Below are positions 5,588-33,300 of a stretch of 64,000 nucleotides of DNA, in pieces; the first letter of the stretch is position 1, and the number at the start of each line of letters is the position of its first letter. A program made the position numbers and the translations under genes. The notes under the pieces are model-generated. The model saw only the letters and a program-made list of their open reading frames with translations, was not told where the DNA came from and made no database searches. The stretch lies in the NCBI GenBank assembly GCA_001783715.1, contig MFNF01000061.1, positions 6,722-70,721 of the forward strand. The letters run 5' to 3'. Origin of the DNA: Candidatus Lambdaproteobacteria bacterium RIFOXYD2_FULL_56_26 (GTDB taxonomy: Bacteria; SAR324; XYD2-FULL-50-16).

Positions 5588-6589
5588 ATGCGTTCCAGAC
5601 TGACGTTGGGGCTTTTGGGTGGGCTCTTTGTCCTGCTCATTACCGATCTTTTTGGGGTTGGGAACCTGCAACGGTTGATCGAAACGGTGCTGCCGCCGCC
5701 TAGTGGACGCAAGCCCAACCTGCTGGTCGGGACCAACCCTTGGCCGGGCTATGCTCCCTTTTACCTAGCCCGAAGGCTGGGGCTCTACCAAGGCAAAGGT
5801 GTTGATTTTGTGGAATACCCCAGCACCAGCATGACGCTCAAGGCGCTGCGCAACGGAGCCATCCAGGCCGCCGCCCTGACCTTGGATGAAACCCTGCAGC
5901 TCTACGAGCTGGGGACGCAGTTTAAGGTGGTGCTGGTCTTGGACTATTCGGCCGGGGCCGATGCCATCTTAGCCCGCCCTCCCTTGGCCAGTTTGGCCGA
6001 CCTGAAGAACAAAAAAATAGCTTTTGAAAATAGTACATTAGGCGGGTATTTTTTGACCCGGACCTTGGAACGGAGCCGGATGCACCCCGATGACTTCGAG
6101 TTGGTGCCCCTGGAGGTTGACGAACATCTCCAGGCCTACCTGCAAGAGAAGGTGGATGGAGTGGTCACCATGGAGCCCTACAAGACTGCCTTGGAACGGG
6201 CCGGGGCCAAAAAGATCTTCAGTTCCAAAGACCTGCCCCAGGAGATTATTGATGTACTGGTGGTCCGGGAAGACTGGCTCGCCGGGGATGTCCGGGCTTT
6301 GAAGTTTTTGGCCGAAGGTTGGTTTGAGGCGCTCCGGCAGTTGCAGGAAGCGCCGGAGCAAATGGCTCCCCTTTTGGGCGAACAGCTGAACCTCAATCCC
6401 AAAGAGGCCCTGGAGGCCGTGGCGGGAGTCCAGCTCTTGGACCAAAAAGCCAATCTGGCGCTTTTTGTGGGCAGCCCTTCCCCCTTCGACCAGTCGGCCA
6501 GAGTGACCAATGATTTTCTCCTGAGCCACCAGCTGTTGTCCCGCAAAGTAAGCCTGGAAGGTTTGGCCGACCCTATTTTGCTGCGGTAA
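5588..6589 (+). CDS. periplasmic substrate-binding protein (NMT1/SsuA-like), probable partner of the downstream sensor kinase
   Basis: 333 aa with signal/TM N-terminus and type-2 periplasmic binding fold similar to sulfonate/nitrate/bicarbonate SBPs; ends 8 nt before the kinase gene. Confidence 0.6.
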   Translation: MRSRLTLGLLGGLFVLLITDLFGVGNLQRLIETVLPPPSGRKPNLLVGTNPWPGYAPFYLARRLGLYQGKGVDFVEYPSTSMTLKALRNGAIQAAALTLDETLQLYELGTQFKVVLVLDYSAGADAILARPPLASLADLKNKKIAFENSTLGGYFLTRTLERSRMHPDDFELVPLEVDEHLQAYLQEKVDGVVTMEPYKTALERAGAKKIFSSKDLPQEIIDVLVVREDWLAGDVRALKFLAEGWFEALRQLQEAPEQMAPLLGEQLNLNPKEALEAVAGVQLLDQKANLALFVGSPSPFDQSARVTNDFLLSHQLLSRKVSLEGLADPILLR

Positions 6590-6596
6590 AAGGACC

Positions 6597-9011
6597 ATGA
6601 ACCAGCCCATTTTGTTTCCACTTCGTTTGACCATTCCGCTGATACTGTTGCTTTTTACTGCAACTTTGTCCTTGTGGAGCATCAAATACAACGGTTCCTT
6701 GTCCAACGACAAAGTGGAGGCTCAGGCCAGCGCCGCCTTGATCCGCCTGATGACCCGGCTGCAAATCACCATCGAACATGCCTACGCCAAGGACGACAAA
6801 ACCGCCGTCTCCCGGGAGATCAGCGGGCTGGCTTCGGACCTCGACTACAGCTACATCCTTTTGTTTGACGAACGGGGCAAGATCCTGGCCTCGAACCGGT
6901 CCGCCTTTGTGGGGCAAGGGTTTATCGAAAAACTTGAATCGATCCCCGAAGGGGAGCGCCAGCAGATCTTCACCCATTTGAGTGAAGTGCGGCGCAATCT
7001 TTCGGGCCAAGTGTACCTAACCGAAGACCGGGGACGGCTGGTGGGGATCTATCCCTTGATCTTGAGCCAAAACTCCAAGGCCATCCGGGACCCTTCACGG
7101 GGATACCTGATGGTTTTTGAAGATCTGCTCGGACAAAAACGGGAGGCCTTGGAGTCGGTTTACCGGCAGTTGATCCAGTTTTGCTTGATTTTGGGGATTT
7201 TGACCGTTGGGCTGGGGGTCTTTTTTGACCAGATCGTCTCTCGGCGGATCAACCGGATTGTCGGGGTAACCCGGCGGGTAGGCCGGGGGGATTATTCAGT
7301 CCGCACTGGCCTGACCGGGCTCGATGAGATCGGCAGGCTGGCCTCGGCGATTGACGAAATGGCCCGGGCCCGGGCCGCCGCCGAAGGGATGTTGCTCAAG
7401 CTGAACCGGGCGGTCGAACAGAGCCCAGTCTCGGTGGTGATCACCGATTTGGCCGGGCAGATCGAATATGCCAACCCCAAACTTTTGGAGGTCACCGGCT
7501 ACGAACTGGAAGAGGTGATCGGCCAAAACCCCAGACTGTTTAAATCCGGGTACCACGACTCCCTGTTTTACCAAAAACTTTGGACCGAGCTGACCGCCGG
7601 AAGACAGTGGAAGGCGGAGATGCGCAACAAAAAGAAAAACGGGGAACCCTTTTGGGAATGGGTGACCATCACCCCCATTCTGGACGACTCGGGCCGGATC
7701 ATCAACTACCTGGGGGTCAAGGAAGACATCACCCTCAAAAAACAGCGAGACGAAGAACTGCTCAAGGCCCGGAGGGATGCAGAGGCGGCCAACCAAGCCA
7801 AAACCAACTTTCTGGCCACCATGAGCCACGAATTGCGCACCCCGATGAACGGCATCATGGGGATGAGTCAGATTCTTCTGGCCGAAGAGGAGTCGCCGGA
7901 CAAGCGTTCCATGCTGGACGTGGTGATGAATTCCTCCATCGCCCTGGTGGGGGTGCTAGACGAGATCCTCGACATCACCAAAATCGAGGCCAGCCAGTTC
8001 CAGGCCCACCTGGAGCCGACCGACCTCAACCAGTTGCTCAAGGACTTGGGCGAGATGTTCTGGGCCGCCGCCAAGTCCAAGAGCCTCGACCTGACCTGCT
8101 CGGCCCAAGGACTGACCCAAAGTTTGTACCAAGTGGACCCCAACATGGTCACCAAGGTGCTTTCCAACCTCCTGGCCAATGCGATTAAATTTACCGCCAA
8201 AGGTGCGGTCCGGCTCCGGGTCAAGGAGATCGAACTCCAAGGGGCTCTGGCCCTACGTTTTGAGGTGGAAGACACCGGTGTCGGGATTCCGGCCTCCAAG
8301 ATCGACCAGATCTTTTTGAGCTTCACCCAAGTGGACAGCAGCTCCACCCGGCGTTACGGCGGAGTGGGCTTGGGGCTGGCGATTGCGCTCAATTTAGTCC
8401 GGCTGATGGGCGGCGAACTGGGGGTCCAGAGTAGAGAAGGCGAGGGGAGTTTGTTTTGGTTTGAGTTGCAAGCACAACCGGGGATTAGCACCCGGGAGGC
8501 GGAGTTGGTGTTTGCTCCCCAGAACTCCAAAGAACCGGAAAACCTGGATTTAATCGAAACTTCCCCTAGGGTGCTCTCCAGGCGGACACAAACCCAAGGG
8601 GAGAACGGCAAAGGGAAAAAAATCCTGGTGGTGGAAGACGACAGCATCAATGCTTCGGTGATCCACCGGATCTTGACCTTAAACGATTTTACGGTGATCG
8701 AGGCGGAAAACGGAAAAAAAGCCTTGGAAATCCTGAGCACCCAAAGGGTGGACTTGGTCTTGATGGACTGCCTGATGCCAGTTTTAGACGGCTACCGGAC
8801 CTCCAAGATGATCCGGGATAAGGAAGCCAAAGGGGAACTCAAGGGCCATGTGCCCATTGTTGCGGTGACCGCCAAGGCGATGGAAGAGGACCGGGCCAAA
8901 TGCCTGGAATCCGGCATGGACGACTATCTGTCCAAGCCGGTGGAGATGAAGCACCTCTTGGAAATCATCGCCGACCTTCTGGGCCGAGACAAAGGCCGGG
9001 TCCTGCTTTAG
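6597..9011 (+). CDS. hybrid sensor histidine kinase/response regulator (periplasmic sensor-TM-HAMP-PAS-HisKA-HATPase-REC)
   Basis: Two TM segments flank a ~170-aa periplasmic domain; PAS ([15 protein letters not shown]); H-box ([15 protein letters not shown]); HATPase (N/G boxes); C-terminal REC (ILVVEDD...[14 protein letters not shown]...SKP). Confidence 0.9.
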
Positions 9012-9018
9012 GGGGAGC

Positions 9019-9630
9019 CTAGCCCTTGCGGTGCCACTGGGTAAAAAGAAAAAGCTGCTCCTTCCCCCAAGGGGTGGTGTGCAGGGTTTGGGCTTGTTGT
9101 ACCAGCTCAAACCCCGGCCCCCAGAGGGCCTGTAGGGACTCGATACTGTGCCGCACCACCGGCAACCCGCTGCACTTCTCCGGCCCCTGTGGGGCAAAAC
9201 CTCCGATCACCAACCTCCCCCCTTTGAGCAACGCCCCCTTCATCTGTTGCGCATAGACCTGCTGGTCCTTCGGGTCGGTCAAAAAATGCAGCACCGCCCG
9301 GTCGTGCCAACAGCGGTAACGGGGCTCCAAGGGCTGGGCCAAAAGATCGGCGGCGATCAGCTTGACCTGAGCCCTTTGGGCACCAAGCCTGTGGTGGACT
9401 TGGTCCAGGGCGGTCGGGCTCAGGTCCAAGAGGGTCACGTCCTCAAACCCCTCCGCCAGCAAATGGTCCACCAGATAAGAACAGCCGGCCCCTACGTCGA
9501 TCAAAGGCTGGGCCTCCTCCTTGGGGCCGATCATCTGGATCGACCTCTGTGGCTGGGTCTGGTACCAGCCCAACTGCTCAAAACTCTTTTGCTGGTAGGT
9601 TGATTCCCAATGTTGCCGTAACTCACTCAT
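9019..9630 (-). CDS. class I SAM-dependent methyltransferase
   Basis: SAM-binding motif I (IDVGAGCSYLVDHL) and acidic motif II (LLDLS); start set at Met preceding the MTase fold rather than at the ORF-track start. Confidence 0.7.
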   Translation of the reverse strand: MSELRQHWESTYQQKSFEQLGWYQTQPQRSIQMIGPKEEAQPLIDVGAGCSYLVDHLLAEGFEDVTLLDLSPTALDQVHHRLGAQRAQVKLIAADLLAQPLEPRYRCWHDRAVLHFLTDPKDQQVYAQQMKGALLKGGRLVIGGFAPQGPEKCSGLPVVRHSIESLQALWGPGFELVQQAQTLHTTPWGKEQLFLFTQWHRKG

Positions 9631-9683
9631 TGCTGATAAACTCCTAGGACCGATTTTGGCGAGACTCCGTTTCTCCATATGTA

Positions 9684-9727
9684 TATAGAGTAATTCTAAT
9701 AGAGTGATTTGTAATAGAGCAATTTGA
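9684..9727. promoter_or_regulatory. three direct ATAGAG-NN-ATT repeats at 16-bp spacing in the AT-rich divergent control region (methyltransferase <-> dsrC)
   Basis: atagagtaattc (9684), atagagtgattt (9700), atagagcaattt (9716); region 9631-9963 is ~70% AT in a ~60% GC genome. Confidence 0.4.
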
Positions 9728-9963
9728 GTTTTTTGGACGGGAGGGCGGGAAAAACAAACGAGGTTTCGTTCCGCTGACCGTAAGTAAATTTTATTTCCTG
9801 CTGTTATACAATGCTTTTTAAAGCCAAAAACCAGGGGCTCCAAAAAAAAAATCGAGCTATGCAAAAAATTATTGTAATTTTATATCGTTATATTAGAATA
9901 TATCAAATCTTTTATTACGAAACTGTTTTTCCTTGTTTTTTCAACCTTAACCAGAGGACCGAC

Positions 9964-10299
9964 ATGAGCTTTGAAGTCAACGGCAAGACCATCGAGACCG
10001 ATGAGGACGGATATTTAAAAGATGTGACCCAGTGGTCGAAAGAAGCAGCCGAATATCTGGCCAAGACCGAAGACGTGACCATGACCGACAAGCATTGGGA
10101 AGTGATCAACTTCTTGCGGGATTATTATGGTCAGTACCAAATCGCCCCGATGGTGAAGATTTTGACCAAGGAAATCGCCAGCCTGCACGGGATCGACAAA
10201 AAGGATGCTTCCAAGATGCTGTACGACCTGTTCCCTTCGGGACCGGCCAAGCAGGCCTGCAAGATCGCCGGGCTGCCCAAGCCGACCGGCTGCGTTTAG
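9964..10299 (+). CDS. dsrC: DsrC, dissimilatory sulfite reductase gamma subunit / TusE-like sulfur carrier
   Basis: 111 aa ending in the DsrC C-terminal arm ...AGLPKPTGCV with both conserved Cys; ATG at 9964 follows the AT-rich leader. Confidence 0.9.
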   Translation: MSFEVNGKTIETDEDGYLKDVTQWSKEAAEYLAKTEDVTMTDKHWEVINFLRDYYGQYQIAPMVKILTKEIASLHGIDKKDASKMLYDLFPSGPAKQACKIAGLPKPTGCV

Positions 10300-10320
10300 G
10301 CCAAAGGGCGAACCCAAGAA

Positions 10321-10347
10321 AAACCATTTGGGGATTCCGGGACCCCC
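10321..10347 (+). other. GC-rich stem-loop in the dsrC-dsrA intergenic region
   Basis: ggggattccggg-acc-cccggaacccc: ~11-bp stem with one bulge; no U-tract follows. Confidence 0.35.
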
Positions 10348-10379
10348 GGAACCCCCACTGACAAAACCCAGGAGAGAGA

Positions 10380-11585
10380 ATGTCAAACCAAGCGCACAGC
10401 TCAAGCGAAACGCCCTTGTTGGATGAATTGCTCAAAGGTCGGTGGCCCAGTTTCGTCAAAGAGATGAAAGAAATGGCGGACACCAAACCGATGGTCAGGG
10501 ACGTGTTGCGGCAGCTGGAAAAATCATATGTCGATAAAAAGACCCACTGGAAGCATGGCGGTATCGTTGGGGTGAAGGGATACGGTGGGGGCATCATCGG
10601 TCGCTACTCGGACAGCCCCGATGAATTCCCCGGCGCAGCCCACTTTCACACGGTACGGGTCAACCAACCGGCCGGGTGGTTCTATTCCTCTCAAGCATTG
10701 AGAGACCTTTGCGACATCTTTGAGAAATACGGTTCCGGTTTGACCAACATGCATGGTTCCACCGGCGACATCATTCTCCTGGGCACCACCACCGACGAAT
10801 TGGAACCGATCTTCTCGGCGTTGACCGAAAAGGGTTGGGACTTGGGCGGCTCCGGTTCGGCGCTGCGCACCCCCAGCTGCTGCGTTGGGCCTGCTCGTTG
10901 CGAATGGGCGATGTTTGACTGTCTGGACCTGTGCCACGACATCACCCACCATTACCAGGACGAGATTCACCGCCCTGCCTTCCCCTACAAGTTTAAGATC
11001 AAGGTTTCCGGCTGCCCCAACGACTGCGTCTCGGCCATTGCTCGGGCCGACTTTTCGGTGATCGGCACCTGGAAAGACCATATCCAGGTCAACCAAGCGG
11101 CCATGCAAGAGTATGTTGCCAAGGGCCGCAACCCGATCAAGGATGCCGTCCTGCTCTGCCCCACCAAAGCGATTGATTGGGATGGGAAAGAGATCAAGAT
11201 CGACAACGAAAACTGTGTGCGCTGTATGCAGTGCATCAACGCCTACCCCAAGGCCCTCAAACCGGGCAAGGAACGTGGGGCCACGATTTTGATTGGGGCC
11301 AAGGCTCCGATCGTCCAAGGGGCACTGTTCAGCTCGGTGCTGGTTCCCTTCATGGAACTGGAAAAACCCTATGACGACCTCAAGGAACTGCTCGAAAAAC
11401 TTTGGGACGTTTGGGACGACCACGGAGAAAACAAAGAGCGGATCGGCGAATTGGTGGAGCGGATGGGCAAAGGGGAGTTCCTTGAGCGCATCGGGATCAA
11501 GCCGGACATCCAGATGGTCATCCATCCCCGGGAGAATCCTTACGTCTTTTACGACGAGTACTACGAAGAAGTGGACGAAAAATAA
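10380..11585 (+). CDS. dsrA: dissimilatory sulfite reductase alpha subunit
   Basis: 401 aa with sirohaem-[4Fe-4S] Cys clusters (CCVGPARC...C, CPNDC) and a ferredoxin-like insert (CPTKAIDW...CVRCMQC); colinear with dsrB. Confidence 0.92.
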
Positions 11586-11653
11586 ACCCTTTGGACGGAC
11601 TCGCCCAAAAGCAACTTGCATTGGACTAACCCCTTTTGCTTTAAGGAACCTAC

Positions 11654-12724
11654 ATGAACGTCAGAAAAACAGATATCGGATGTCCCGATTACAAACAGTT
11701 CCTGCCGCCGATGATTCTCAAGAATTACGGCCAATGGGATTGGCATGAAGTGATCAAGCCCGGCGTATTTGTCCATCAGGCCGAATCCGGCGACCGGCTT
11801 TACACCGTCAGGGTAGGCAGCCCCCGGCTTTTGAACGTCAAGTCGCTGCGGTTTTTTACCGATGTGGCCGACAAGTACTGCGACGGCTTTTTGCGGTTTA
11901 CCAGCCGGAGCAACGTGGAATTCATGACCCCGGTGTTCGAGAACATCGACCCGATGATCGCCATGCTGCAAAGCGAAGGCTGGCCGGTCGGCGGTACCGC
12001 CAACTCGGCCTCCAACGTGATCCATACCCAAGGCTGGGTCCATTGCCACACCAGTGCTACCGATGCTTCGGGGCTGGTCAAATGTGTGATGGACGACCTT
12101 TATGACGACTTCACCAACCACAGCCTGCCCGGTCGGATGAAGTTGGCGGTCGCCTGTTGCCTCAACATGTGCGGGGCGGTTCACGCTTCGGACATTGCGA
12201 TTTTGGGCATCCACCGCCGTCCGCCGAAAGTGGACCCCCACAATCTGGCCAACTACTGCGAGGTGCCGACTACCATCGCTGCTTGTCCGACCGGCGCTAT
12301 CCGGGCCGACATTTTGGATGGCCAAAAAACCTTGAAAATCAACGAGTCCCAGTGTATGTACTGCGGCGCTTGTTACACCGCCTGCCCCAAGCTGCCCATC
12401 GCCGACTCGGTCAACGATGGTCTTTCCATTTGGGTTGGCGGCAAGTGCGCCAACGCCCGTTCTACCCCTCGGTTTACCAAAATGGTGGTGCCCTTTATCC
12501 CCAACAACCCACCTCGGTGGCCTGAAGTGGTTGAAGCGGTGCGGACCATCGTGGATGTGTACAAGGCCCATGGGAAACCTTGGGAGCGGTTGGCCGATAT
12601 GATCGACCGGATCGGTTGGGCGAGGTTCTTCAAACTCACCGGGTTTGAGTTCACCAAGTACCACATCGACGATTACAAGTTGGCGACCAAGTCGTACAAC
12701 GCTTCCACTCACCTGCGTTTCTAA
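11654..12724 (+). CDS. dsrB: dissimilatory sulfite reductase beta subunit
   Basis: 356 aa with DsrB motifs ([25 protein letters not shown]) and a ferredoxin domain (CPTGAIR...[12 protein letters not shown]). Confidence 0.92.
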
Positions 12725-12734
12725 AGGAGACCTT

Positions 12735-12983
12735 ATGGCAGTAGATACCCAAACCATTGCCGATGCCATGTTGGCAATGGTTACCGAAGCAGCCGGCGTG
12801 AAGCGCTACAAGCCCGGCGACTTGAGCAAAGCCATGGTGGCCAAATTTGCCGATGACGGTGTCAGCAAGGACGATTGCAAAGACGCAATCCGGGTCTTGG
12901 TGGACAGCGAGAAGTTGGTTTACACCTACTTCAACGGTACCTGGCTGGAAATTCCCCACCAGGAAGGTTCCGCAAAAGGGTAA
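12735..12983 (+). CDS. dsrD: DsrD (small winged-helix protein of reductive dsr operons)
   Basis: 82-aa ORF immediately after dsrB with RBS aaggaga; size, position and K/Y/F-rich winged-helix-like pattern fit DsrD. Confidence 0.7.
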   Translation: MAVDTQTIADAMLAMVTEAAGVKRYKPGDLSKAMVAKFADDGVSKDDCKDAIRVLVDSEKLVYTYFNGTWLEIPHQEGSAKG

Positions 12984-13009
12984 GGCTCCAGGGCCTCCCG
13001 TTTGTTTTT

Positions 13010-13049
13010 CCTCCCCCGGCTCTGGGACCTGTGCCCAGAGTAGGGGAGG
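13010..13049 (+). other. strong stem-loop in the dsrD-downstream intergenic region
   Basis: cctcccccggctctggg-acctgtg-cccagag-ta-gggggagg: ~15 paired bases; no downstream U-run, so not a canonical intrinsic terminator. Confidence 0.4.
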
Positions 13050-13089
13050 CCATACCTCCATCCATGTCCACCTTTACCCAGAGGTTCAG

Positions 13090-13458
13090 ATGTTTGTGAT
13101 TTCCCAAAAGGCGGCAGAAAAGTTTCTGGAGTCCATGGAACAGATCGGCGAGACCGGCTTGTTTTTGCGGGTTGCCGCCCGCAAGCACCCCGACCAGGGG
13201 ATTGCCTACAACATGGGCTTTGACCACGCCACCCCTGAGGACAAGCAGTTTGAAATGGCGGGCCTTAAGGTCTGCTATGATGAAGAAACAGAGCCGAACA
13301 TCAAGGACATGGTGATCGACTTTGGGGAGCATGACGGCATCGAGCAGTTTATCTTTATGAATCCCCAAGACGCTCCCGCCAACGACCCCAGCAGTTGCGG
13401 AACCACCAAGGGTTCGGGCAGTTGCGGTTCGGGCAAGGGCACCTGCACCTGCGGTTAG
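13090..13458 (+). CDS. IscA/HesB-fold protein lacking the canonical IscA Cys ligands, with a Cys/Gly-rich C-terminal tail (DsrR-like?)
   Basis: N-terminal ~95 aa align to the IscA fold (GLFLRVAARKHPDQGIAYNMGFD...FIFMNP), but the CxGC/CGCG ligands are replaced by SSCGTTKGSGSCGSGKGTCTCG. Confidence 0.55.
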   Translation: MFVISQKAAEKFLESMEQIGETGLFLRVAARKHPDQGIAYNMGFDHATPEDKQFEMAGLKVCYDEETEPNIKDMVIDFGEHDGIEQFIFMNPQDAPANDPSSCGTTKGSGSCGSGKGTCTCG

Positions 13459-13461
13459 GCG

Positions 13462-13980
13462 GTGATGGATCTGGAAACATTGCTCAGGGAACAGCAGGAT
13501 TCCATCTTGGAAGCTTGGCTGAATGCGGTTTTTGAGCTGTACCCGGTTGAGGCTTGGCGGTTTTTAAAATCCTCCCGAGACTTTTACCAAAACCCCTTGG
13601 GCCACACCCTGGCCTCGGGGCTGAGGGGGCTTTATGCTGAGCTTTTGGAAGGGACCGATGCCAACAAATTGGCCCCTTTGCTCGACCAAGTGATCCGGGT
13701 GTTGGCGGTGCAGGAACTGTTGCCCAGCCAAGCGCTCAATTTTTTGTTTTACTTGAAACGGATCGTTCGGACCCAGGCGGAGAAACAAGGTCTCTCCCCC
13801 CAAGACCCCGAACTTTTGGGCTTTGACAACGTAGTGGACCAACTGTTGCGGCTTTCTTTCGACATTTACGTCAAATGTCGTGAAAGGATCTTTCAACTCA
13901 AGGTGGAAGAGCAGACCCTCCAGACCGAAAAACTGATCCAATTGGCCAACAGCGGCTTTGGGGCGCTTAGAAAACTTTAA
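13462..13980 (+). CDS. conserved hypothetical protein between the dsrR-like ORF and dsrM (possible DsrT-like)
   Basis: 172-aa soluble helical ORF, translationally adjacent to dsrM; assignment to DsrT rests on position and size, not a recognised motif. Confidence 0.35.
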   Translation: MMDLETLLREQQDSILEAWLNAVFELYPVEAWRFLKSSRDFYQNPLGHTLASGLRGLYAELLEGTDANKLAPLLDQVIRVLAVQELLPSQALNFLFYLKRIVRTQAEKQGLSPQDPELLGFDNVVDQLLRLSFDIYVKCRERIFQLKVEEQTLQTEKLIQLANSGFGALRKL

Positions 13981-14998
13981 TCAGGTAACGACCGTGAGAA
14001 TCCTTCTTCCCTTTGTCACCACCTTGGTTTTGGGTGCCGCCGCCTATTTTTTCGCCCAGGCGGGGGCCCAGTGGTTTTTGGGGGTCCTGCTGCCCTACTT
14101 GGCCTTTGTGGTGTTTGTGGTGGGCTTTTCGGCCAAGATCCTCTCCTGGGCTAAAGTGCCGGTTCCCTTCCGCATCCAGACCACCTGCGGGCAAGCGAAG
14201 TCCTTGGACTGGATCAAGGCCAACGAACTGGAATCCCCTCACACCAAATTGGGGGTAGTGGTACGGATGGCTTTGGAAGTATTGGTGTTCCGCAGCCTTT
14301 TTCGCAACACCTGGACCACCTTAAAAAGAGACGAGAAAAACGGCCCCCGGCTGGTCCACGAGTCGGACAAAAGCCTTTGGCTGTTTGGGCTTTTGTTCCA
14401 CTGGTCCTTTTTGCTGATCTTTGTGCGGCACTACCGGTTTTTCCTGGAGCCGGTGCCCTTTTTTGTCCCGATTTTGGAAAGGTTTGACGGGCTGTTCCAG
14501 ATCACCTTGCCCACCTTTTACCTGACCGATCTTTTGATCCTACTGGGGATCACCGCCCTCTTTTTGCGCCGGTTGGTGGACCCGAAGGTCAAGGCCATTT
14601 CTCTGCCTGCCGACTTCTTCCCGCTCTTTTTGATCGGGGCGATTGCCTGCACCGGCATTGCCATGCGCTATGTCCACAAAGTGGACATCACCAAGGTCAA
14701 GGCCCACATCCAGGGGCTGATGGCCTTTAACCCCGGAGCGACGGACCTTGAGATCGGGGCGATCTTTTACGCCCACCTCGCCTTGGTGAGTGTGTTGGCC
14801 ATGTACTTTCCCTTTTCCAAGTTGATGCACATGGGCGGGGTCTTTTTTAGCCCGACCCGGAACCAGACCAATGACTCCAGGGAAGTCCGGCACCTCAACC
14901 CCTGGAACCCGAAGATGAAGATTCGCACCTATGCCGAGTATGAAGACGAGTTCCGCACCAAAATGAAGTCGGCGGGTCTGCCTTTGGACCAAGAATAG
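13958..14998 (+). CDS. dsrM: DsrM, membrane haem-b subunit (NarI-like) of the DsrMKJOP complex
   Basis: 346 aa, five or more TM helices with conserved His in helices, NarI-like; 5' end overlaps the previous ORF, so an internal start near 13994 is possible. Confidence 0.85.
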   Translation: MGRLENFNQVTTVRILLPFVTTLVLGAAAYFFAQAGAQWFLGVLLPYLAFVVFVVGFSAKILSWAKVPVPFRIQTTCGQAKSLDWIKANELESPHTKLGVVVRMALEVLVFRSLFRNTWTTLKRDEKNGPRLVHESDKSLWLFGLLFHWSFLLIFVRHYRFFLEPVPFFVPILERFDGLFQITLPTFYLTDLLILLGITALFLRRLVDPKVKAISLPADFFPLFLIGAIACTGIAMRYVHKVDITKVKAHIQGLMAFNPGATDLEIGAIFYAHLALVSVLAMYFPFSKLMHMGGVFFSPTRNQTNDSREVRHLNPWNPKMKIRTYAEYEDEFRTKMKSAGLPLDQE

Positions 14999-15027
14999 GT
15001 TATCCCTAGCCCAATCAGGATAAGGTT

Positions 15028-16704
15028 ATGTCGAAATATGTACCGAAAATGGCCGAAATGGCCGCCTTGATGAACGGGCAACAAAGCCTGCTCACCGGCA
15101 AAGCTCCCGCCAGCGGCTGGCTGGAGACCCCACCGGAATTCCGGCCCGGCAACTACTGCTACAGTGCCAAGCCCGAAGCGCTCAACGGGTTGGGCCTGCC
15201 CCACCCCCGAGAGTGGGACCCCGCCGAGGCGGACTGGAAGCTGCCCGAGAACTGGATGCAGCTCATGCGAGACGGCATGAAGGCTCGGCTGGAGAAGAAC
15301 CGGGCCTTTAAATTGTTCATGGATGTTTGCGTCCGCTGCGGTGCCTGTGCCGACAAGTGCCACTTCTTTTTGGGCACCGGGGACCCCAAGAACATGCCGG
15401 TCATGCGGGCCGAACTGATGCGCTCGATCTACCGGGGGGAGTTCACCACCGCCGGGAAGATCTTGGGCAAACTGGGCGGAGCCCGGAAGTTCACCGAAGA
15501 CGCAGTCAAAGAATGGTACATGTATTATTACCAATGTACCGAATGCCGCCGCTGCTCGGTCTTCTGCCCCTACGGGATCGACACCGCCGAAATCACCATG
15601 ATGGCTAGGGAGATGTTGCACCTGATCGGGGTCAACATCAACTGGATCCTCAAACCCGCTTCGGACTGCAACCGCACCGGGAACCACCTGGGGCTGGAGC
15701 CCCACGCCTTTGTCTCTTCGGTCAACAGCATCTGTGAGGACCTCGAAGATGTCACCGGCATCGCCATTGAACCCAGCTTCAACCGCAAGGGGGCAGAGGT
15801 GTTGTTCATCACCCCTTCCGCCGATGCTTTTGCCGTGCCGGGCATGTACACCATGATGGGTTACCTGCTCTTGTTTGAACACATCGGCTTGGACTACACC
15901 ATCAGCACCTATGCCTCCGAAGGGGGCAACTTTGGGCTTTTTTCCTCCAACGAGATCATGAAAAAGCTCAACGCCAAGATGTACCACGAGGCGGAGCGGC
16001 TCAAGGTCAAGTGGATCTTGGGCGGAGAGTGCGGCCACATGTGGCGGGTGGTTCACCAGTACATGGGCACCATGAACGGCCCGGCGGACTTCCTAGAGGT
16101 CCCCAAGAGCCCGATCACCGGCACGGTCTTTCACAACGCCAAGGCCACCAAAATGGTGCACATCGCCGAGTTCACCGCCGACCTGATCCGGCACAAAAAA
16201 CTGAAGCTCGACCCCTCTCGGAACAACCACCGGAACGTCACCTTCCATGACTCCTGCAACACCAGCCGGGGCATGGGGATGATCGAAGAGCCCAGGTACA
16301 TCTTAAACGCTGTGACCAACAACTTCCATGAAATGGACGAAAACTGCATCAAGGAGAAGACCTTCTGCTGCGGTTCCGGCTCGGGGCTCAACACCGAGGA
16401 ATACATGGACATTCGGATGCGAGGCGGTTTCCCCCGTGCTTCGGCGGTCAAGGAAGTCAAAGAGAAAAAAGGGGTCAACATGTTGACCGCCATTTGTGCC
16501 ATCGACCGGGTAGCACTGACCGCCAGCATGAACTACTGGGTCCCTGGAGTCGGGGTTTCGGGTTTGCACGAGCTGGTGGGCAACGCTTTGGTGATGGAAG
16601 GCGAAAAGAGCCGAACCGAAGACTTGCGAGAGGAAGACATGGATGTTGAAGTGAAGGGAGCAGACGCACAAGCAGCCGAGAAGGAGGAGGAAAAAGATGT
16701 ATAA
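15028..16704 (+). CDS. dsrK: DsrK, HdrD-like catalytic subunit with CCG domains
   Basis: 558 aa; ferredoxin-like CxxCxxCxxxC (CVRCGACADKC, CTECRRCSVFCP) and CCG-domain Cys motifs (CCGSGSG). Confidence 0.9.
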   Translation: MSKYVPKMAEMAALMNGQQSLLTGKAPASGWLETPPEFRPGNYCYSAKPEALNGLGLPHPREWDPAEADWKLPENWMQLMRDGMKARLEKNRAFKLFMDVCVRCGACADKCHFFLGTGDPKNMPVMRAELMRSIYRGEFTTAGKILGKLGGARKFTEDAVKEWYMYYYQCTECRRCSVFCPYGIDTAEITMMAREMLHLIGVNINWILKPASDCNRTGNHLGLEPHAFVSSVNSICEDLEDVTGIAIEPSFNRKGAEVLFITPSADAFAVPGMYTMMGYLLLFEHIGLDYTISTYASEGGNFGLFSSNEIMKKLNAKMYHEAERLKVKWILGGECGHMWRVVHQYMGTMNGPADFLEVPKSPITGTVFHNAKATKMVHIAEFTADLIRHKKLKLDPSRNNHRNVTFHDSCNTSRGMGMIEEPRYILNAVTNNFHEMDENCIKEKTFCCGSGSGLNTEEYMDIRMRGGFPRASAVKEVKEKKGVNMLTAICAIDRVALTASMNYWVPGVGVSGLHELVGNALVMEGEKSRTEDLREEDMDVEVKGADAQAAEKEEEKDV

Positions 16705-17074
16705 CGCCAAGATCATTCTTCCGGTCCTGCTGGTTTTTTTAGGTTTGTTGACCTACCCGCTGTGGTCCCAAAAAGCCTCGGCCCCTCCGGTCCTGGCTAC
16801 CCCGCTCAAAGGGGAGCATTGTATTGAATCCAAGGATTGGATGCGGGCCAACCACATGCAGCTGTTGGAACAGTGGCGGCATTCGGTGGTCCGGGACCAA
16901 AACCGGGACCATGTCGCTACCGATGGCCAGCATTACAACAAAAGTCTGAGTAACACCTGCCTGGACTGCCACCAAAAAGAACAGTTTTGCGACAGTTGCC
17001 ATACCTACGCCAGCGTCCACCCCTACTGCTGGGAATGCCATTTTGACCCCAAGGAGGTGAACCATGTCCATTGA
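16697..17074 (+). CDS. dsrJ: DsrJ, periplasmic trihaem cytochrome c
   Basis: 125 aa, signal anchor, three CxxCH motifs (CLDCH, CDSCH, CWECH); start overlaps dsrK. Confidence 0.9.
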   Translation: MYNAKIILPVLLVFLGLLTYPLWSQKASAPPVLATPLKGEHCIESKDWMRANHMQLLEQWRHSVVRDQNRDHVATDGQHYNKSLSNTCLDCHQKEQFCDSCHTYASVHPYCWECHFDPKEVNHVH

Positions 17075-17843
17075 CCGGAGAGATTTTTTGAAGAAACTGG
17101 GCTTGGGCTCCATGGTGAGCCTGGGCGGTTTCGGGTTTTTGAAAAAAATGGGTGGCCCGGAAGAGGCGATTGCTTCGGGGGCGACCTTGGAAACCGCCGA
17201 CCCCAACAAAGTACGTTGGGGCATGGTGATCGAAATGGGCAAGTGCCAGGAAGGTTGCACCGACTGCATCTCGGTCTGCCACCTGACCCACAACGTACCC
17301 GACCATGGGAACAAAAAAGACGAGATCAAGTGGATCTGGAAAACCGGCTACAAGCACCTCTTTACCAATGAGGCGCACCAGTACGCCCAGGATGGTTTGC
17401 CGGACAAGCCCTTTTTGACCTTGTGCAACCACTGCGACAACCCCCCTTGCACCCGGGTGTGCCCCACCGAAGCGACCTTCGCTCGGCCCGATGGGATTGT
17501 GCAGATGGACTTCCACCGCTGCATCGGCTGTAGGTTTTGTATGGCCGGCTGCCCTTACGGTTCCAGGAGCTTCAACTGGCGGGACCCCAGACCGAACCTC
17601 AAGGAAATCAACCCCAATTTCCCGACCCGAGAGCGTGGAGTGGTGGAGAAGTGTAATTTCTGTACCGAACGGATCGACAAGGGAGAACGTCCCGCTTGTG
17701 TCGAGGCCTGCAAGGAAGGGGTACTGACCTTCGGTAACCTCAACGACCCCAATTCGGAGATCCGGCAACTGCTGGCCGAAAAACGTACCAACCAACGAAA
17801 ACCCGAGTTGGGCACCAAGCCCTCGGTGTTTTACATCGTCTGA
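17064..17843 (+). CDS. dsrO: DsrO, periplasmic ferredoxin-like Fe-S subunit (Tat-exported)
   Basis: Twin-arginine motif RRDFLKK; multiple 4Fe-4S Cys clusters ([34 protein letters not shown]...C). Confidence 0.9.
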
Positions 17844-17857
17844 GCCGGGAGAACGAA

Positions 17858-19009
17858 ATGATTGAAAAGGCATTGACCGGAAACCGGAGCTACTTTGGCT
17901 GGCTGGCTCTGTTGGCCCTGGTGGCGGCCAACGGGGTTTATTTTTACGGGCAGCAGTTGACCTACGGTCTGGGGATCACCGGGATGAGCCGGGACATCTC
18001 CTGGGGGGTTTACATCGCCCAATTCACCTTCATGGTCGGCGTGGCCGCCAGTGCGGTGATGTTGGTTCTGCCCTACTACATCCACAACTACAAAGCCTTC
18101 GGGAAGATTGTGGTGTTGGGGGAGTTTTTGGCGGTGGCGGCGGTCTCCATGTGCATGATGTTTATCATGGTGGACATGGGCAAGCCGATGCGGTTCCTCA
18201 ACGTCATGCTTTACCCCTCACCCCACTCGATCCTCTTTTGGGATGCGACGGTGCTCAACGTTTACCTGTTCCTCAACCTGCTTTGCGGTTGGGTGGCCTT
18301 GGAGTCGGAAAAAAAGGGCACTCCCCCGCCCAAGTGGCTCAAGCCCTTTATCTACCTGTCCATCCCTTGGGCCTTTTCGATCCACACGGTGACCGCCTTT
18401 TTGTACGCCGGTTTGCCCGGAAGGCACCTGTGGCTGACCGCCATCATGGCCCCTCGCTTTTTGGCCTCCGCCTTTGCCGCCGGTCCGGCTTTGTTGATCC
18501 TCCTAGCCTTGCTGCTGCGCCGGGTGGCCAAGTTTGATGCCGGGGACGAAGCGATCCAAAAGCTGGCCACCATCGTCACTTACGGGGTGATCGCCAACTT
18601 CTTTTTTATTGGCTTGGAGTTTTTTACCGCTTACTATTCGGGGATCCCCAGTCACCAACACAACCTGGACTACCTCTTTTTTGTGCTGGAAGGGCACGGC
18701 AACTTGGTACCCTTCTTGTGGACCTCGGTAGTTTTGGGTTTTGCCGGGATGGGCGGACTGTTGTGGCCGGGGTTGCGGAAAAACGAAAGGATTTTGGGCC
18801 TGATTTGCGGGGCGATCTTCATTTCCCTGTGGATCGACAAAGGGATCGGGTTGGTGATCGGTGGTTTTATCCCCAACCCCTTGGAAGAGATCACCGAATA
18901 CTACATCACCTGGCCCGAGTTTTCCATCACCTTGGGGATCTGGGCGATTGGGGCGATGATCTTGACCTTGCTGTACAAAATCGCCCTTTCGGTGAAAAAG
19001 GCCCAATAG
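17858..19009 (+). CDS. dsrP: DsrP, NrfD/PsrC-family integral membrane quinone-interacting subunit
   Basis: 383 aa with ~10 TM helices, NrfD-like, directly after dsrO. Confidence 0.88.
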
Positions 19010-19016
19010 GACAACC

Positions 19017-19409
19017 ATGGAATTTGAACGGCAAGAGATTGAACTGGCCTTGACCTATGTCGAGTTTGTGGACATCACCGCTTCCCTGGACCAAGAAGGC
19101 TCGGTGGTGTTTACCCGCAGCCCCTTGCCCGAAGGGATCGGCCCCGAAATGGCCGAGGAGATCAATTTTGTGGTGGATTATTACCAACGGATGATCTTCA
19201 ACGGCGACCTGGACCCGGAAGAGGAAGACCCCACCCTGCCCGTCTTTGAAGACCCGCTGGGTGAGATCAACTTCAAGCTCAAACGGTACCAGTCCGAACT
19301 GGCTTTGGAGCTAAAAAAATCCCTGGGTGTTGCCGACCACCGGAACATCAACCCCTATGCCAGGGTAATGTTACAGTACGCCGCCGAGGTCCAGAAAAAA
19401 AAATCCTGA
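19017..19409 (+). CDS. uncharacterised acidic protein translationally coupled to dsrP
   Basis: 130-aa ORF starting 8 nt after the dsrP stop; highly acidic (many E/D), no recognisable motif. Confidence 0.4.
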   Translation: MEFERQEIELALTYVEFVDITASLDQEGSVVFTRSPLPEGIGPEMAEEINFVVDYYQRMIFNGDLDPEEEDPTLPVFEDPLGEINFKLKRYQSELALELKKSLGVADHRNINPYARVMLQYAAEVQKKKS

Positions 19410-19666: not shown

Positions 19667-21241
19667 ATGTCGATTCGTGCAAAACTGATCCTTTTAACGA
19701 TCACCTCCTTGTTTGGGGTGGTTTGTCTGCCTGCGATCGGCCTTTGGCAAATGGGCAAGGTTTATGAAGAAGCCAACTTTTGTAATGTCAACTCTATCCC
19801 GGCGATCCGGTTCTTGACCGAAGCGACCAACTCCTACATGAGCTATCGCCTGCGGGTCTGGGAGCACATCAACACCAAGGATGAGGGGGAGTTACAGCGA
19901 ACCGTTGCCGAGATGGGAGAGCTGAAAAAACATGTTTATGACTCCTTGGACGGCTACAAAAGCACCATCGTGGACAAAGAGGACCAAGAACTCTTGGAAG
20001 ACGAGATGGCAGCCTTTGGTGCCATCATCACGATGATGGACAAGGTGATGGAGTTGGACCGAGCCGGGAAAGATGAAGAAGCGATAGCCATGCTGCTCAA
20101 AAACCTAGACCAGCTCAAAGAGGTGGCGGCAAAGTTCAAGAAGCACCAGGACTACAACCAAACCCTGGCCAAGCAGCAATCGGAAGAGGCAGCGGCGGCA
20201 AAGCAGTTTGCTACCTATGAAATGTTGGTGATCTCCTTGATCATCGGCGTGATCAGTCTGGTCATTGGTCTGGTGACCTCCAAAACCATCAGTAGCTCGA
20301 TCAGCCGGTTGATGGGCCACATCCTGGCGGTTGAAAAAACCAAGCACTTGAAGGCGGAACCCAAAGTTGAAGGGAAAGACGAGATTGGCCAGATCGGTGC
20401 GGCGTTCAACAACTTTGTGTTGGAAATCAAAAAGGTGATCCAGGAGTTCGCCAAGGGAGCCTCCATCTTGGCCTCCGCCTCCACCGAACTGAGCGCCTCG
20501 ACCGTACAAATCAGCAAGACTGCCGAAGAACTGCGGGACAACGCCGAAAGCTCCGCCGCCGCCGCCCAGGAAACCAGCAGCAACCTGCAGCAGATGTCCG
20601 AAGCGGTCAACCGGATCAACATCCAGATCGGGGAGATCCAAAAGGCCGGGAACCAAGCCACCCAACTGGCCAGCACCGGCACCCAAGCGGTCCACGAAGC
20701 CAGAGACTCCATGACCGCTATCACCGAGTCCTCCAAGAAGATCGTGGGGATCACCCGGGTGATCGAGGAAATCGCCAGCCAAACCAACTTGCTTTCCCTG
20801 AACGCTGCCATTGAAGCCGCCAAGGCCGGGGAGTTCGGCAAAGGGTTTGCGGTGGTCGCCGAAGAGGTGCGTAACTTGGCCGACCGGAGTACCAAGGCAG
20901 TGGCCGAGATCAAGCAGTTGATCGAAAAAAGTGAGCATGATGTCCATGCCGGGAACCAAGTGGTGCTGCGCACCAGCGAGGCCTTGGACCAGATCATCAC
21001 CGCCGTGCAAACCATGGCCCAAGGGATCAACCAAAACGCTAGGGACATCGCCGAGCAGGATGCCAGCACCAAGGAGGCCAGCTTGGCAGTCGAGGACATC
21101 GCCAAAACCTCCGAAGGAAACGCCAGCGCCATCACCCAGTTGGCCGCCACCTCCACCCAGGTCAGCGAAACCGCCAACGACCTCAGCCGCACTGCCGAGT
21201 CGCTCAACGACGAAGTGCAGAAGTTCCGGTTGGACGCTTAA
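19667..21241 (+). CDS. methyl-accepting chemotaxis protein (4HB sensor-TM-HAMP-MCP signalling domain)
   Basis: Two TM segments flank an N-terminal periplasmic helical domain; conserved MCP signalling hairpin ([34 protein letters not shown]). Confidence 0.9.
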
Positions 21242-32529: not shown

Positions 32530-33300
32530 ATGAAAATCCAATTTTTGGGGGTTGGTGCCGCCTTTACCACCGCCCAATATTACCAATCCAACCTGCTGCT
32601 CACCTCGGAGCGAGGGAAAAAACTTTTGCTGGACGCTGGGGGCGACATTCGCTTTGCCTTGTCCGAAGCCGGGGTCCCTGCGTCTTCCCTAGACGGGGTT
32701 TATCTCTCCCACCAACATGCGGACCACATCGGGGGCATGGAGTTTTTGGCCTACGCCACCTTCTTTGACCCTTCGGTTCCCAAACTGAAGCTTTATGTTG
32801 AAAGGGAATTGGCCACAGAGGTTTGGGAACACAGCTTGCGGGGCGGCTTGAGTGTGGTGGATGACCAACCCAGGGGCCTGAACGATTTTTTTGAGGTCCG
32901 GCTGCTGGACCTCAAGCAATCTTTTGTCTGGGAAGGCTGGACCTTTACCTTGTACAAAATGCCCCATGTGATCACCAAGGTTGGCTCGATCTATTCTTAC
33001 GGCCTCCTGGCGGAGCGGCAGGGTTATCCGGGGTTCTTTTTCAGCTCCGATTCCACCTTTGCCCCGGAGATTCTAAAGGCAGTGGCCCCCAAGGTCCAAT
33101 TGATCTTCCATGACTGTGAAACCCGCCTGCCCCCCACCGGGGTCCATTGCCACTACTTGGAACTCAAAACCCTGCCCCAGTCGGTCAAATCCAAGCTCTG
33201 GGCCTACCATTACCAGCCGGACCCGCCCTACCAACCACAAGCGGACGGGATGCTGGGGTTTGTCAAAAAAGGCCAAGAGTTTCACTTCAAAAAATCCTGA
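32530..33300 (+). CDS. MBL-fold metallo-hydrolase
   Basis: HxHxDH motif (SHQHADHIGG) and downstream His/Asp ligands. Confidence 0.7.
   Translation: MKIQFLGVGAAFTTAQYYQSNLLLTSERGKKLLLDAGGDIRFALSEAGVPASSLDGVYLSHQHADHIGGMEFLAYATFFDPSVPKLKLYVERELATEVWEHSLRGGLSVVDDQPRGLNDFFEVRLLDLKQSFVWEGWTFTLYKMPHVITKVGSIYSYGLLAERQGYPGFFFSSDSTFAPEILKAVAPKVQLIFHDCETRLPPTGVHCHYLELKTLPQSVKSKLWAYHYQPDPPYQPQADGMLGFVKKGQEFHFKKS

Follow-up and report, generated by a model that had tools for sequence, protein, structure and literature searches.

Does the dissimilatory sulfite reductase (dsr) locus of SAR324 bacteria serve the reduction of sulfite or the oxidation of sulfur? The question is raised by a 64,000-nucleotide (nt) stretch of contig MFNF01000061.1 from Candidatus Lambdaproteobacteria bacterium RIFOXYD2_FULL_56_26 (the window, here and below, is this whole stretch), in which twelve uninterrupted open reading frames (ORFs), all on the + strand at 9964-19409, form the colinear array dsrC-A-B-D-R-T-M-K-J-O-P-orf130. 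Judged by sequence, the locus appears to be of a mixed type: DsrAB, DsrD, DsrT, and DsrMKJOP are reducer-like, whereas DsrC, dsrR, and the dsrC-dsrA order resemble those of oxidizers that carry dsrEFH and dsrL. The preferred reading, to which a probability of about 0.6 is assigned, is that this core dsr locus of a SAR324 bacterium from the groundwater of the Rifle aquifer encodes a sulfite-respiring (not sulfate-respiring), probably reversible machinery. The dsr genes of this lineage have been analyzed by Anantharaman 2018, Löffler 2020, Neukirchen 2021/2023, and Klier 2024, and the locus is already known from several papers on this population.

Gene content and order of the dsr locus

Curated family models place nine of the twelve ORFs well above their cut-offs; among these, all five subunits of DsrMKJOP, in the order M-K-J-O-P, exceed the NCBIfam equivalog cut-offs. 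The assignments (lengths in amino acids, aa; pI, isoelectric point) are as follows.

9964-10299, + strand: dsrC, 111 aa, sulfur-carrier substrate protein of DsrAB (TIGR03342, 153 bits; PF04358, 150 bits)
10380-11585, + strand: dsrA, alpha subunit of dissimilatory sulfite reductase (TIGR02064, 570 bits; cut-off 393)
11654-12724, + strand: dsrB, beta subunit of dissimilatory sulfite reductase (TIGR02066, 478 bits; cut-off 341.5)
12735-12983, + strand: dsrD of a divergent subfamily, 82 aa, small winged-helix protein (profile-profile match)
13090-13458, + strand: putative dsrR, 122 aa, IscA-fold protein
13465-13980, + strand: dsrT, 171 aa, presumed regulator (RsbRD_N, PF14361, 55.9 bits; cut-off 24.3)
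13994-14998, + strand: dsrM, membrane di-heme b quinol-interacting subunit (NF038037, 462 bits; cut-off 300)
15028-16704, + strand: dsrK, cytoplasmic HdrD-like catalytic subunit (NF045796, 708 bits; cut-off 400)
16697-17074, + strand: dsrJ, periplasmic tri-heme cytochrome c (NF038038, 146 bits; cut-off 100)
17064-17843, + strand: dsrO, periplasmic FeS subunit (NF045797, 311 bits; cut-off 200)
17858-19009, + strand: dsrP, NrfD-type integral membrane subunit (NF045798, 478 bits, cut-off 350; PF03916, 131 bits)
19017-19409, + strand: orf130, 130 aa, acidic (pI 4.4), with no family match

The coordinates and gaps agree with an earlier note on this DNA, which described contiguous dsr genes on one strand with short or overlapping junctions: dsrK and dsrJ overlap by 8 nt and dsrJ and dsrO by 11 nt, orf130 follows dsrP after a 7-nt gap, and the remaining intergenic gaps are 6-106 nt, with only 10 nt between dsrB and dsrD. 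The dsrR-dsrT gap, at the site where a relative (L098) carries dsrL, is only 6 nt. The position of dsrC directly upstream of dsrAB, unlike in Desulfovibrio, is likewise as described there; the two ORFs labeled "IscA-like" and "hypothetical" in that note are reassigned here to dsrR and dsrT, respectively. An alternative TTG start of dsrM at 13958 would overlap dsrT.

DsrA and DsrB are encoded by adjacent, paralogous genes, and NIR_SIR and ferredoxin-like domains are detected in them by Pfam. A motif scan at the sequence level identifies the cysteine motifs CX5C, CX3C, and CX2CX2C in DsrA, and CX3C along with the ferredoxin motif CX2CX2C in DsrB. DsrK contains the CCG motif (FCCGSG at residue 447), DsrJ contains three CxxCH motifs, and DsrO starts with a twin-arginine leader, SIDRRDFLK. 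A tblastn search of the whole 64-kilobase (kb) window with proteins from several fetched clusters gives no match to dsrE, dsrF, dsrH, dsrL, or dsrN, so that the absence of these genes from the cluster, as stated in the earlier note, extends to the entire window. Pfam scans of the ~50 larger window ORFs detect no sat, apr, or qmo.

Four public assemblies of the Rifle population match the window DNA over 17-21 kb with 99.99-100% identity: an ENA re-assembly of a Rifle sample, contig MFNB01000001.1 of GCA_001783655.1, JGI metagenome 3300025073, and a Logan assembly. The DsrA sequence is identical to OGG99033.1, OGH07094.1, and OGH05672.1, the latter from the metagenome-assembled genome (MAG) RIFOXYC1_FULL_56_13. 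NCBI lists five Rifle "Candidatus Lambdaproteobacteria" MAGs, and close relatives are labeled SAR324 both in the searches performed here and by Klier 2024 (PMC11406059). In GenBank, dsrD, dsrR, dsrT, and orf130 are each annotated as "hypothetical protein", and dsrC as "sulfurtransferase TusE".

Reductive affinity of DsrAB and DsrMKJOP

The comparison set consists of 80 DsrA loci fetched from at least 600 matching stretches in species-representative genomes; the stretches listed include a single SAR324 locus, and neither oxidative references nor the genome of the window are among them. Four clusters with dsrEFH and dsrL, reached via DsrC matches, serve as oxidative or transitional references; two C-terminal oxidative dsrA fragments from viral contigs were left out.

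L091, Betaproteobacteria: dsrABEFHCMKLJO(P)N-R
L094, Rhodocyclaceae: dsrABEFHCMKLJOPNR
L093, Nitrospinota: N-EFH-JOP...C-A-B-L-M-K
L092: tusA-EFH...C-A-B-L-N

The bit scores of the window proteins against the reductive-lineage loci and against L091-L094 are as follows.

DsrA: 567-656 against reductive-lineage loci, 369-446 against L091-L094
DsrB: 475-568 and 385-426
DsrM: 313-378 and 110-158
DsrK: 790-847 and 406-438
DsrJ: 89-135 and 34-62
DsrO: 254-334 and 175-204
DsrP: 450-499 and 23-57
DsrC: 93-115 and 164-176

For DsrA, DsrB, and the five DsrMKJOP subunits, the scores against reductive lineages exceed those against the betaproteobacterial oxidizers by factors of 1.3 to more than 8, and DsrC alone reverses the pattern of the other seven proteins. 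Concatenated DsrAB shows 58-63% identity to the reductive lineages versus 46-49% to L091, L092, and L093. In a neighbor-joining (NJ) tree of concatenated DsrAB (746 columns, 45 taxa, 200 bootstraps), with L091, L092, and L093 as the opposite pole, the SAR324 clade is assigned to the reductive side, outside the oxidative (rDsr) clade, in 200/200 bootstraps, in line with the reductive placement expected from the earlier note. The clade is sister to all other reductive sequences, i.e., basal, in 153/200 bootstraps, a position toward the oxidative and transitional group that agrees with Klier 2024 (PMC11406059).

The order C-A-B-D-R-T-M-K-J-O-P-orf is found, among the loci listed, only in SAR324 (the window, L005-L007, and L009), and is identical to that of the window in RIFOXYD2_FULL_50_16 (L005/L006) and in another SAR324 MAG (L009). 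The published SAR324/Candidatus Lambdaproteobacteria clusters (Anantharaman 2018; Klier 2024 Fig. 3) come from the same group and the same population, and nothing material differs. The SAR324 relative L098 (ENA ERZ25073482 NODE_28), with DsrA 84% identical, carries dsrL at 784-2454, between dsrR and dsrT, whereas the window locus has none; the L098 DsrL is most similar to that of a reductive-type Ignavibacteriales locus. Among the 76 listed loci with enough upstream DNA, only SAR324, L092, and L093 have dsrC immediately before dsrA; L092 and L093 both carry dsrEFH and dsrL.

Compactness and colinearity as such are not unusual, given that single-strand compact dsr clusters span 8.6-11.4 kb in many environmental lineages; such superclusters have already been noted as common (Anantharaman 2018, PMC6018805). 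The usual orders outside SAR324, e.g., in the environmental reductive superclusters of Acidobacteriota, Gemmatimonadota, Zixibacteria, and Ignavibacteria, are A-B-D-(L)-N-...-C-T-M-K-J-O-P (~11 kb) and C-T-M-K-J-O-P-A-B-D (~8.6-9 kb), and dsrN, absent from the window, is normally located after dsrD or before dsrC in relatives. These superclusters share with the window compactness, a divergent DsrD, dsrT before dsrM, DsrAB at the 58-63% identity given above, and the type of DsrMKJOP. The window differs from them in having dsrC directly upstream of dsrA, no dsrN, both dsrR and orf130, and a DsrC that reaches only 93-115 bits.

Other well-known arrangements are more distant. The order in green sulfur bacteria is dsrN-C-A-B-L-E-F-H-T-M-K-J-O-P-V-W, which shares with the window dsrC immediately upstream of dsrAB and dsrT before dsrMKJOP. 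The window has dsrD and dsrR where dsrL-EFH sit in this cluster, and lacks dsrN, dsrV, and dsrW; its DsrAB, in a comparison without Chlorobia sequences, is on the reductive side. The proteobacterial oxidative cluster dsrABEFHCMKLJOPNR(S), of the Allochromatium vinosum type (also L091 and L094), has dsrR, a similar DsrC, and the same DsrMKJOP subunit set. Unlike the window, it contains dsrEFH, dsrL, and dsrN but no dsrD or dsrT; its DsrAB shows only ~47% identity, and its DsrP and DsrJ can hardly be aligned (23-62 bits). Desulfovibrio vulgaris possesses the same enzymes, including a homologous DsrD (hhalign probability 92.9%); unlike in the window, the Desulfovibrio genes are distributed over three loci (dsrABD; dsrC; dsrMKJOP), with a canonical Pfam-type DsrD and no dsrR.

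A divergent DsrD

In Desulfovibrio, DsrD is an allosteric activator of DsrAB. The 82-aa ORF that follows dsrB, designated dsrD in the earlier note, shows no DsrD match in Pfam (none at E <= 1) or NCBIfam; searches of PDB sequences with the single sequence and with two family profiles give no match, and a single-sequence hhalign comparison with D. vulgaris DsrD yields E = 0.14. The AlphaFold2 model is a winged helix with a predicted local distance difference test (pLDDT) score of 90.8; a Foldseek search started with this model lists D. vulgaris DsrD (1WQ2) at rank 47, with a TM-score of 0.72 normalized to DsrD, amid generic winged helices, so that the structural match is not specific.

In about 50 of the 80 loci listed, dsrB is followed by a homolog of this ORF (38-56% identity); these loci come from Acidobacteriota, Gemmatimonadota, Zixibacteria, Ignavibacteria, and other lineages. 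When this family is compared by hhalign with an alignment of canonical DsrD, composed of Syntrophia-type loci and the D. vulgaris protein (sequence verified against 1UCR), the similarity is detected with the probability of 92.9% (E = 3.7e-7, 64 columns). The Pfam profile PF08679 produces weak matches only, to 7/37 and 1/35 members in two alignments of the post-dsrB family (best E = 0.005; E = 0.014 for the single member in the 35-locus alignment, which includes, e.g., L032 12351-12611). Acidobacterial members of the family have been treated as DsrD (Hausmann 2018, PMC6018796). The 82-aa ORF is a divergent DsrD in the broad sense, outside the Pfam threshold, and the presence of dsrD claimed earlier is upheld by profile-profile comparison, the sole sequence method that succeeded.

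DsrC, DsrR, and DsrT

The DsrC protein of the window ends with ...QACKIAGLPKPTGCV, where both functional cysteines of the C-terminal arm are present, which identifies it as DsrC rather than TusE/RspA. Among solved structures, A. vinosum DsrC (1YX3) is the best match with 130 bits, followed by those of Archaeoglobus fulgidus (105) and D. vulgaris (92). The nearest named homologs outside SAR324 come from Nitrospinota, Betaproteobacteria, and Rhodocyclaceae; DsrC of Aquicultor and Desantisbacteria also reach 154-156 bits. In these comparisons, the protein appears closest to the DsrC of sulfur oxidizers.

Among solved structures, the protein encoded at 13090-13458 is most similar to A. vinosum DsrR (2K4Z, E = 8e-12; E = 4e-5 for IscA), and it lacks the first ligand cysteine of IscA. 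The DsrR proteins from the two betaproteobacterial dsrABEFHCMKLJOPNR clusters match the same region in a tblastn search (E = 1e-9 and 1e-10). A cysteine-rich C-terminal tail (CG...CG...CTCG) is common to the SAR324 and betaproteobacterial DsrR. The protein is closer to DsrR than to IscA; in view of the tail, and of a strict definition that excludes the cluster-ligand cysteines of IscA, the gene is best classified as a predicted dsrR. Among the non-SAR324 reductive-type loci listed, dsrR is absent from 77/77 and was found only in SAR324 and the two betaproteobacterial clusters; likewise, the gene is described as limited to sulfur oxidizers plus a few transitional phyla (Klier 2024, PMC11406059).

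The tail (..CG..GSCG..C.C.) is located at 13396-13458 in the window and also occurs in the dsrR genes of L091 (19080-19478) and L094 (18504-18860); judged from the aligned part, the solved A. vinosum DsrR seems to lack it. The A. vinosum protein is described, in the title of Grimm 2010, as lacking iron-sulfur (Fe-S) binding; the tailed DsrR variants might still bind a metal or an Fe-S cluster. At 13133-13185, inside dsrR, the public assemblies of this population are not consistent: JGI 3300025073 has a 14-nt deletion and the ENA scaffold a G>T substitution (Arg to Leu). An apparent 26-nt deletion in GCA_001783655.1, where an 81-aa fragment is annotated, is a run of N, i.e., an assembly gap, and the gene is not a pseudogene. 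The disagreement likely reflects an assembly trouble spot or strain heterogeneity rather than a pseudogene.

The third small gene, at 13465-13980, ends 13 nt upstream of dsrM, and homologs precede dsrM in the same way in more than 35 loci. The dsrT gene is defined as the RsbRD_N-domain gene immediately upstream of dsrM (Anantharaman 2018, PMC6018805), and by domain and position the window gene is dsrT.

Direction of operation

By analogy with the roles established for these families, DsrAB, which contains siroheme-[4Fe-4S], would reduce sulfite on DsrC, yielding the DsrC trisulfide, and DsrMKJOP, via DsrK, would reduce the trisulfide to sulfide and DsrC, in a reaction coupled to the quinone pool. 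DsrD would stimulate DsrAB, whereas DsrT and DsrR would be small regulators. The presence of dsrD does not fix the direction, given that Desulfurivibrio and cable bacteria oxidize sulfide with reductive-type DsrAB plus DsrD. Sulfide oxidizers with this combination are echoed in PMC6018796.

Published accounts of the lineage describe the same mixture from different angles. The Lambdaproteobacteria MAGs have been reported to lack sat, aprAB, and qmoABC and, "perplexingly", to combine dsrD with dsrEFH (Anantharaman 2018, PMC6018805). DiSCo (Neukirchen and Sousa 2021, PMC8477390) assigned a mixed profile, with reductive DsrAB, D, T, M, J, and P, and oxidative DsrC, EFH, K, O, and L. Table S1 of Löffler 2020 (PMC7596348) lists DsrL OGH01168 (A2426_01665) and dsrEFH "+" for RIFOXYC1_FULL_56_13, and the DsrA tree in the same paper, which includes the identical DsrA, places two Lambdaproteobacteria in the reductive clade with support of 0.81, the deeper order being unresolved there. 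Neukirchen 2023 (PMC10504309) describes a "chimeric" dsr set that groups with Chlorobi in the DsrC, DsrN, DsrEFH, and DsrMJOP trees. Klier 2024 (PMC11406059) places the DsrAB of DsrD-encoding SAR324 between the reductive and oxidative types and reports that these bacteria have both DsrR and DsrT and carry dsrEFH on another scaffold; SAR324 with dsrD but without dsrEFH are regarded there as likely reductive.

Given that dsrL and dsrEFH are reported elsewhere in the genome but sat, apr, and qmo are not, the locus is best interpreted as part of a sulfite-level, probably reversible system, and for the same reason the dsr locus by itself does not reveal in which direction it operates. The reductive type proposed in the earlier note holds for DsrAB, DsrMKJOP, dsrD, and dsrT, but not for dsrR, the oxidizer-like DsrC, and the dsrC-dsrA order. 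That note regarded dsrEFH or dsrL nearby as evidence against this type; neither gene is found within 64 kb, but published tables list both elsewhere in the genome. The same note suggested a probable sulfite/sulfate reducer or sulfur disproportionator; of these, a sulfate reducer is unlikely in view of the published MAG analyses, in which no sat, apr, or qmo is reported. Several points weigh against the interpretation preferred here. The genes dsrEFH, dsrL, and dsrN are not within the 64-kb window, and their presence in the genome rests on published tables; DsrK and DsrO, which DiSCo (PMC8477390) typed as oxidative, have bit scores nearer to the reductive lineages here, in a comparison that did not include Chlorobia; and the opposite pole of the NJ tree consists of one bona fide oxidizer and two transitional sequences, with no archaeal root.

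A strictly reductive system is an alternative that deserves consideration although it seems doubtful. The organism would then be an ordinary sulfite reducer or disproportionator, and dsrR, the oxidizer-like dsrC, and the distant dsrEFH and dsrL would be leftovers or would have reductive roles, as proposed for DsrL-2. Such a scenario agrees with DsrAB on the reductive side of both the NJ tree and the published tree, with a verified dsrD and the presence of dsrT, with DsrMKJOP much closer to the reducer type, with the lack of dsrEFH and dsrL within 64 kb, and with the affinity of the L098 dsrL to the DsrL of a reductive-type Ignavibacteriales locus; Klier 2024 (PMC11406059) considers the dsrD-bearing SAR324 that lack dsrEFH as likely reductive. 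It accounts less readily for a dsrR inside the cluster and an oxidizer-like DsrC, and dsrEFH is in fact reported for the MAG RIFOXYC1_FULL_56_13 (PMC7596348). The sulfide-oxidizing Desulfurivibrio and cable bacteria discussed above also speak against it, in that they use the same combination of reductive-type DsrAB and DsrD.

The opposite possibility, improbable on the available comparisons, is a cluster that runs in reverse as in Chlorobia, so that sulfur taken up or drawn from stores is oxidized to sulfite and a second locus provides DsrEFH and DsrL. Features that fit this scheme are dsrR, the oxidizer-like DsrC, and the placement of dsrC before dsrA and of dsrT before dsrMKJOP, as well as the grouping of Lambdaproteobacteria with Chlorobi in the DsrC, DsrN, DsrEFH, and DsrMJOP trees (PMC10504309) and the fact that sulfate-activation genes are neither found in the window by Pfam scans nor reported in the MAGs (PMC6018805). 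DsrAB, however, is 46-49% identical to the dsrEFH/dsrL clusters versus 58-63% to reductive lineages, and is separated from the former in 200/200 bootstraps; DsrMKJOP is far from the proteobacterial oxidizer type; dsrEFH and dsrL are not linked to dsrAB (tblastn, 64-kb window); and dsrD is present, although recognized oxidizers have lost it (PMC10504309). It is extremely improbable that metagenome binning or chimeric assembly produced the mixed signature: the DiSCo authors (PMC8477390) name contamination or incomplete assembly as a possible cause of mixed profiles, but the oxidizer-like dsrC, dsrD, dsrR, and dsrT are contiguous on one contig, and four independent assemblies of the population, along with at least 4 other SAR324 species from other samples, show the same gene order. 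A sulfite-respiring, probably reversible machinery remains the preferred reading.

An uncharacterized gene downstream of dsrP

The last gene of the array, orf130, encodes the acidic protein (pI 4.4) listed above, which contains no cysteines and has no match in Pfam or NCBIfam. An exhaustive HMMER search of 1.84 billion proteins retrieves relatives amounting to 12 representatives. In all seven distinct contigs or species fetched, down to 30% identity, the homologs are encoded directly after dsrP, whereas the genes downstream of orf130 differ between species; the family sites are 19017-19409 in the window, 18551-18952 in L005, 18442-18849 in L009, and L096-L100. No fold in the PDB matches the confident AlphaFold2 model (pLDDT 86.8; best E = 0.6, TM below 0.3). 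Identity with dsrV or dsrW is rejected because DsrV and DsrW are homologs of siroheme biosynthesis proteins, and identity with dsrS because DsrS is a much larger protein. In the parts of the Anantharaman 2018 and Klier 2024 SAR324 accounts consulted, orf130 is not among the named dsr genes, and it is possibly the only unreported item of the locus.

The strict linkage to dsrP suggests an accessory role with DsrMKJOP. Specifically, orf130 may be an unnamed accessory subunit or assembly factor of the SAR324-type DsrMKJOP. A broader scheme, unlikely as a whole, would have a single DsrAB/DsrC/DsrMKJOP machine run both ways, with the adjacent genes for two small modulators, dsrD (activator of reduction) and dsrR (regulator known from sulfur oxidation), together with dsrT and orf130, setting or stabilizing the direction, and SAR324 representing a living intermediate between the reductive and oxidative states.

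Spacers, start sites, and neighboring genes

Two candidate regulatory elements are located around dsrC.

9872-9899, + strand: promoter-like site in the AT-rich spacer upstream of dsrC (TTGTAA-16-TAGAAT, 9/12 positions; weak evidence)
10329-10357, + strand: GC-rich hairpin in the dsrC-dsrA spacer (-27.2 kcal/mol, z = -2.65; 0/200 shuffles fold as well)

Sites of the first kind show no enrichment over shuffles; transcription of the dsr locus probably starts from the promoter region upstream of dsrC. In the output of some gene callers, dsrC is lengthened to 162 aa by an upstream ATG at 9811, within this AT-rich promoter region. The shorter form, 111 aa from a start at 9964, possesses a ribosome-binding site and aligns with the DsrC model over its full length. 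The hairpin is not followed by a T-run on the + strand; a different GC hairpin occupies the same place in L005, and there is none in L009. It may be a transcript-processing or stability element that gives dsrC a separate transcript fate.

Directly upstream of dsrC, three genes at 5588-9864, encoding an NMT1-like solute-binding protein, a HAMP-PAS hybrid histidine kinase/response regulator, and a divergently oriented S-adenosylmethionine (SAM) methyltransferase, are kept in L005 (5385-9315), where DsrA is 90% identical. This module may be a sensor linked to the dsr cluster; in L092, a PAS hybrid kinase is also located upstream of the dsr genes. On the other side, 257 nt downstream of the cluster, a methyl-accepting chemotaxis protein with a 4HB_MCP sensor (19667-21241) is not kept in relatives; a second one, with a CZB zinc-binding sensor domain, is encoded at 39211-40821. 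A di-heme cytochrome c peroxidase of the CCP/MauG family (415-1389), near the dsr locus and in the same position in all assemblies of the population, hints at exposure to peroxide or oxygen. A metallo-beta-lactamase-fold protein (32530-33300) that scores 108 bits on Anti-Pycsar Apyc1 (PF23023) lies in a housekeeping neighborhood. The rest of the window is ordinary chromosome, with purA, purN, purD/E, clpXP, tig, clpB, rpsB, pyrH, and other genes.

Implications

In the literature, SAR324 already figures as a link in discussions of how Dsr-based sulfur oxidation evolved, and in this respect the present analysis confirms published work without extending it. The Pfam DsrD model misses the DsrD of most environmental lineages, so that Pfam-based surveys under-call dsrD. 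The orf130 proteins form a tiny uncharacterized family, strictly linked to dsrP, and are candidate Dsr accessory proteins. For genome mining, the locus carries a caution: a complete, reductive-looking dsr cluster does not establish that its host is a sulfite or sulfate reducer.

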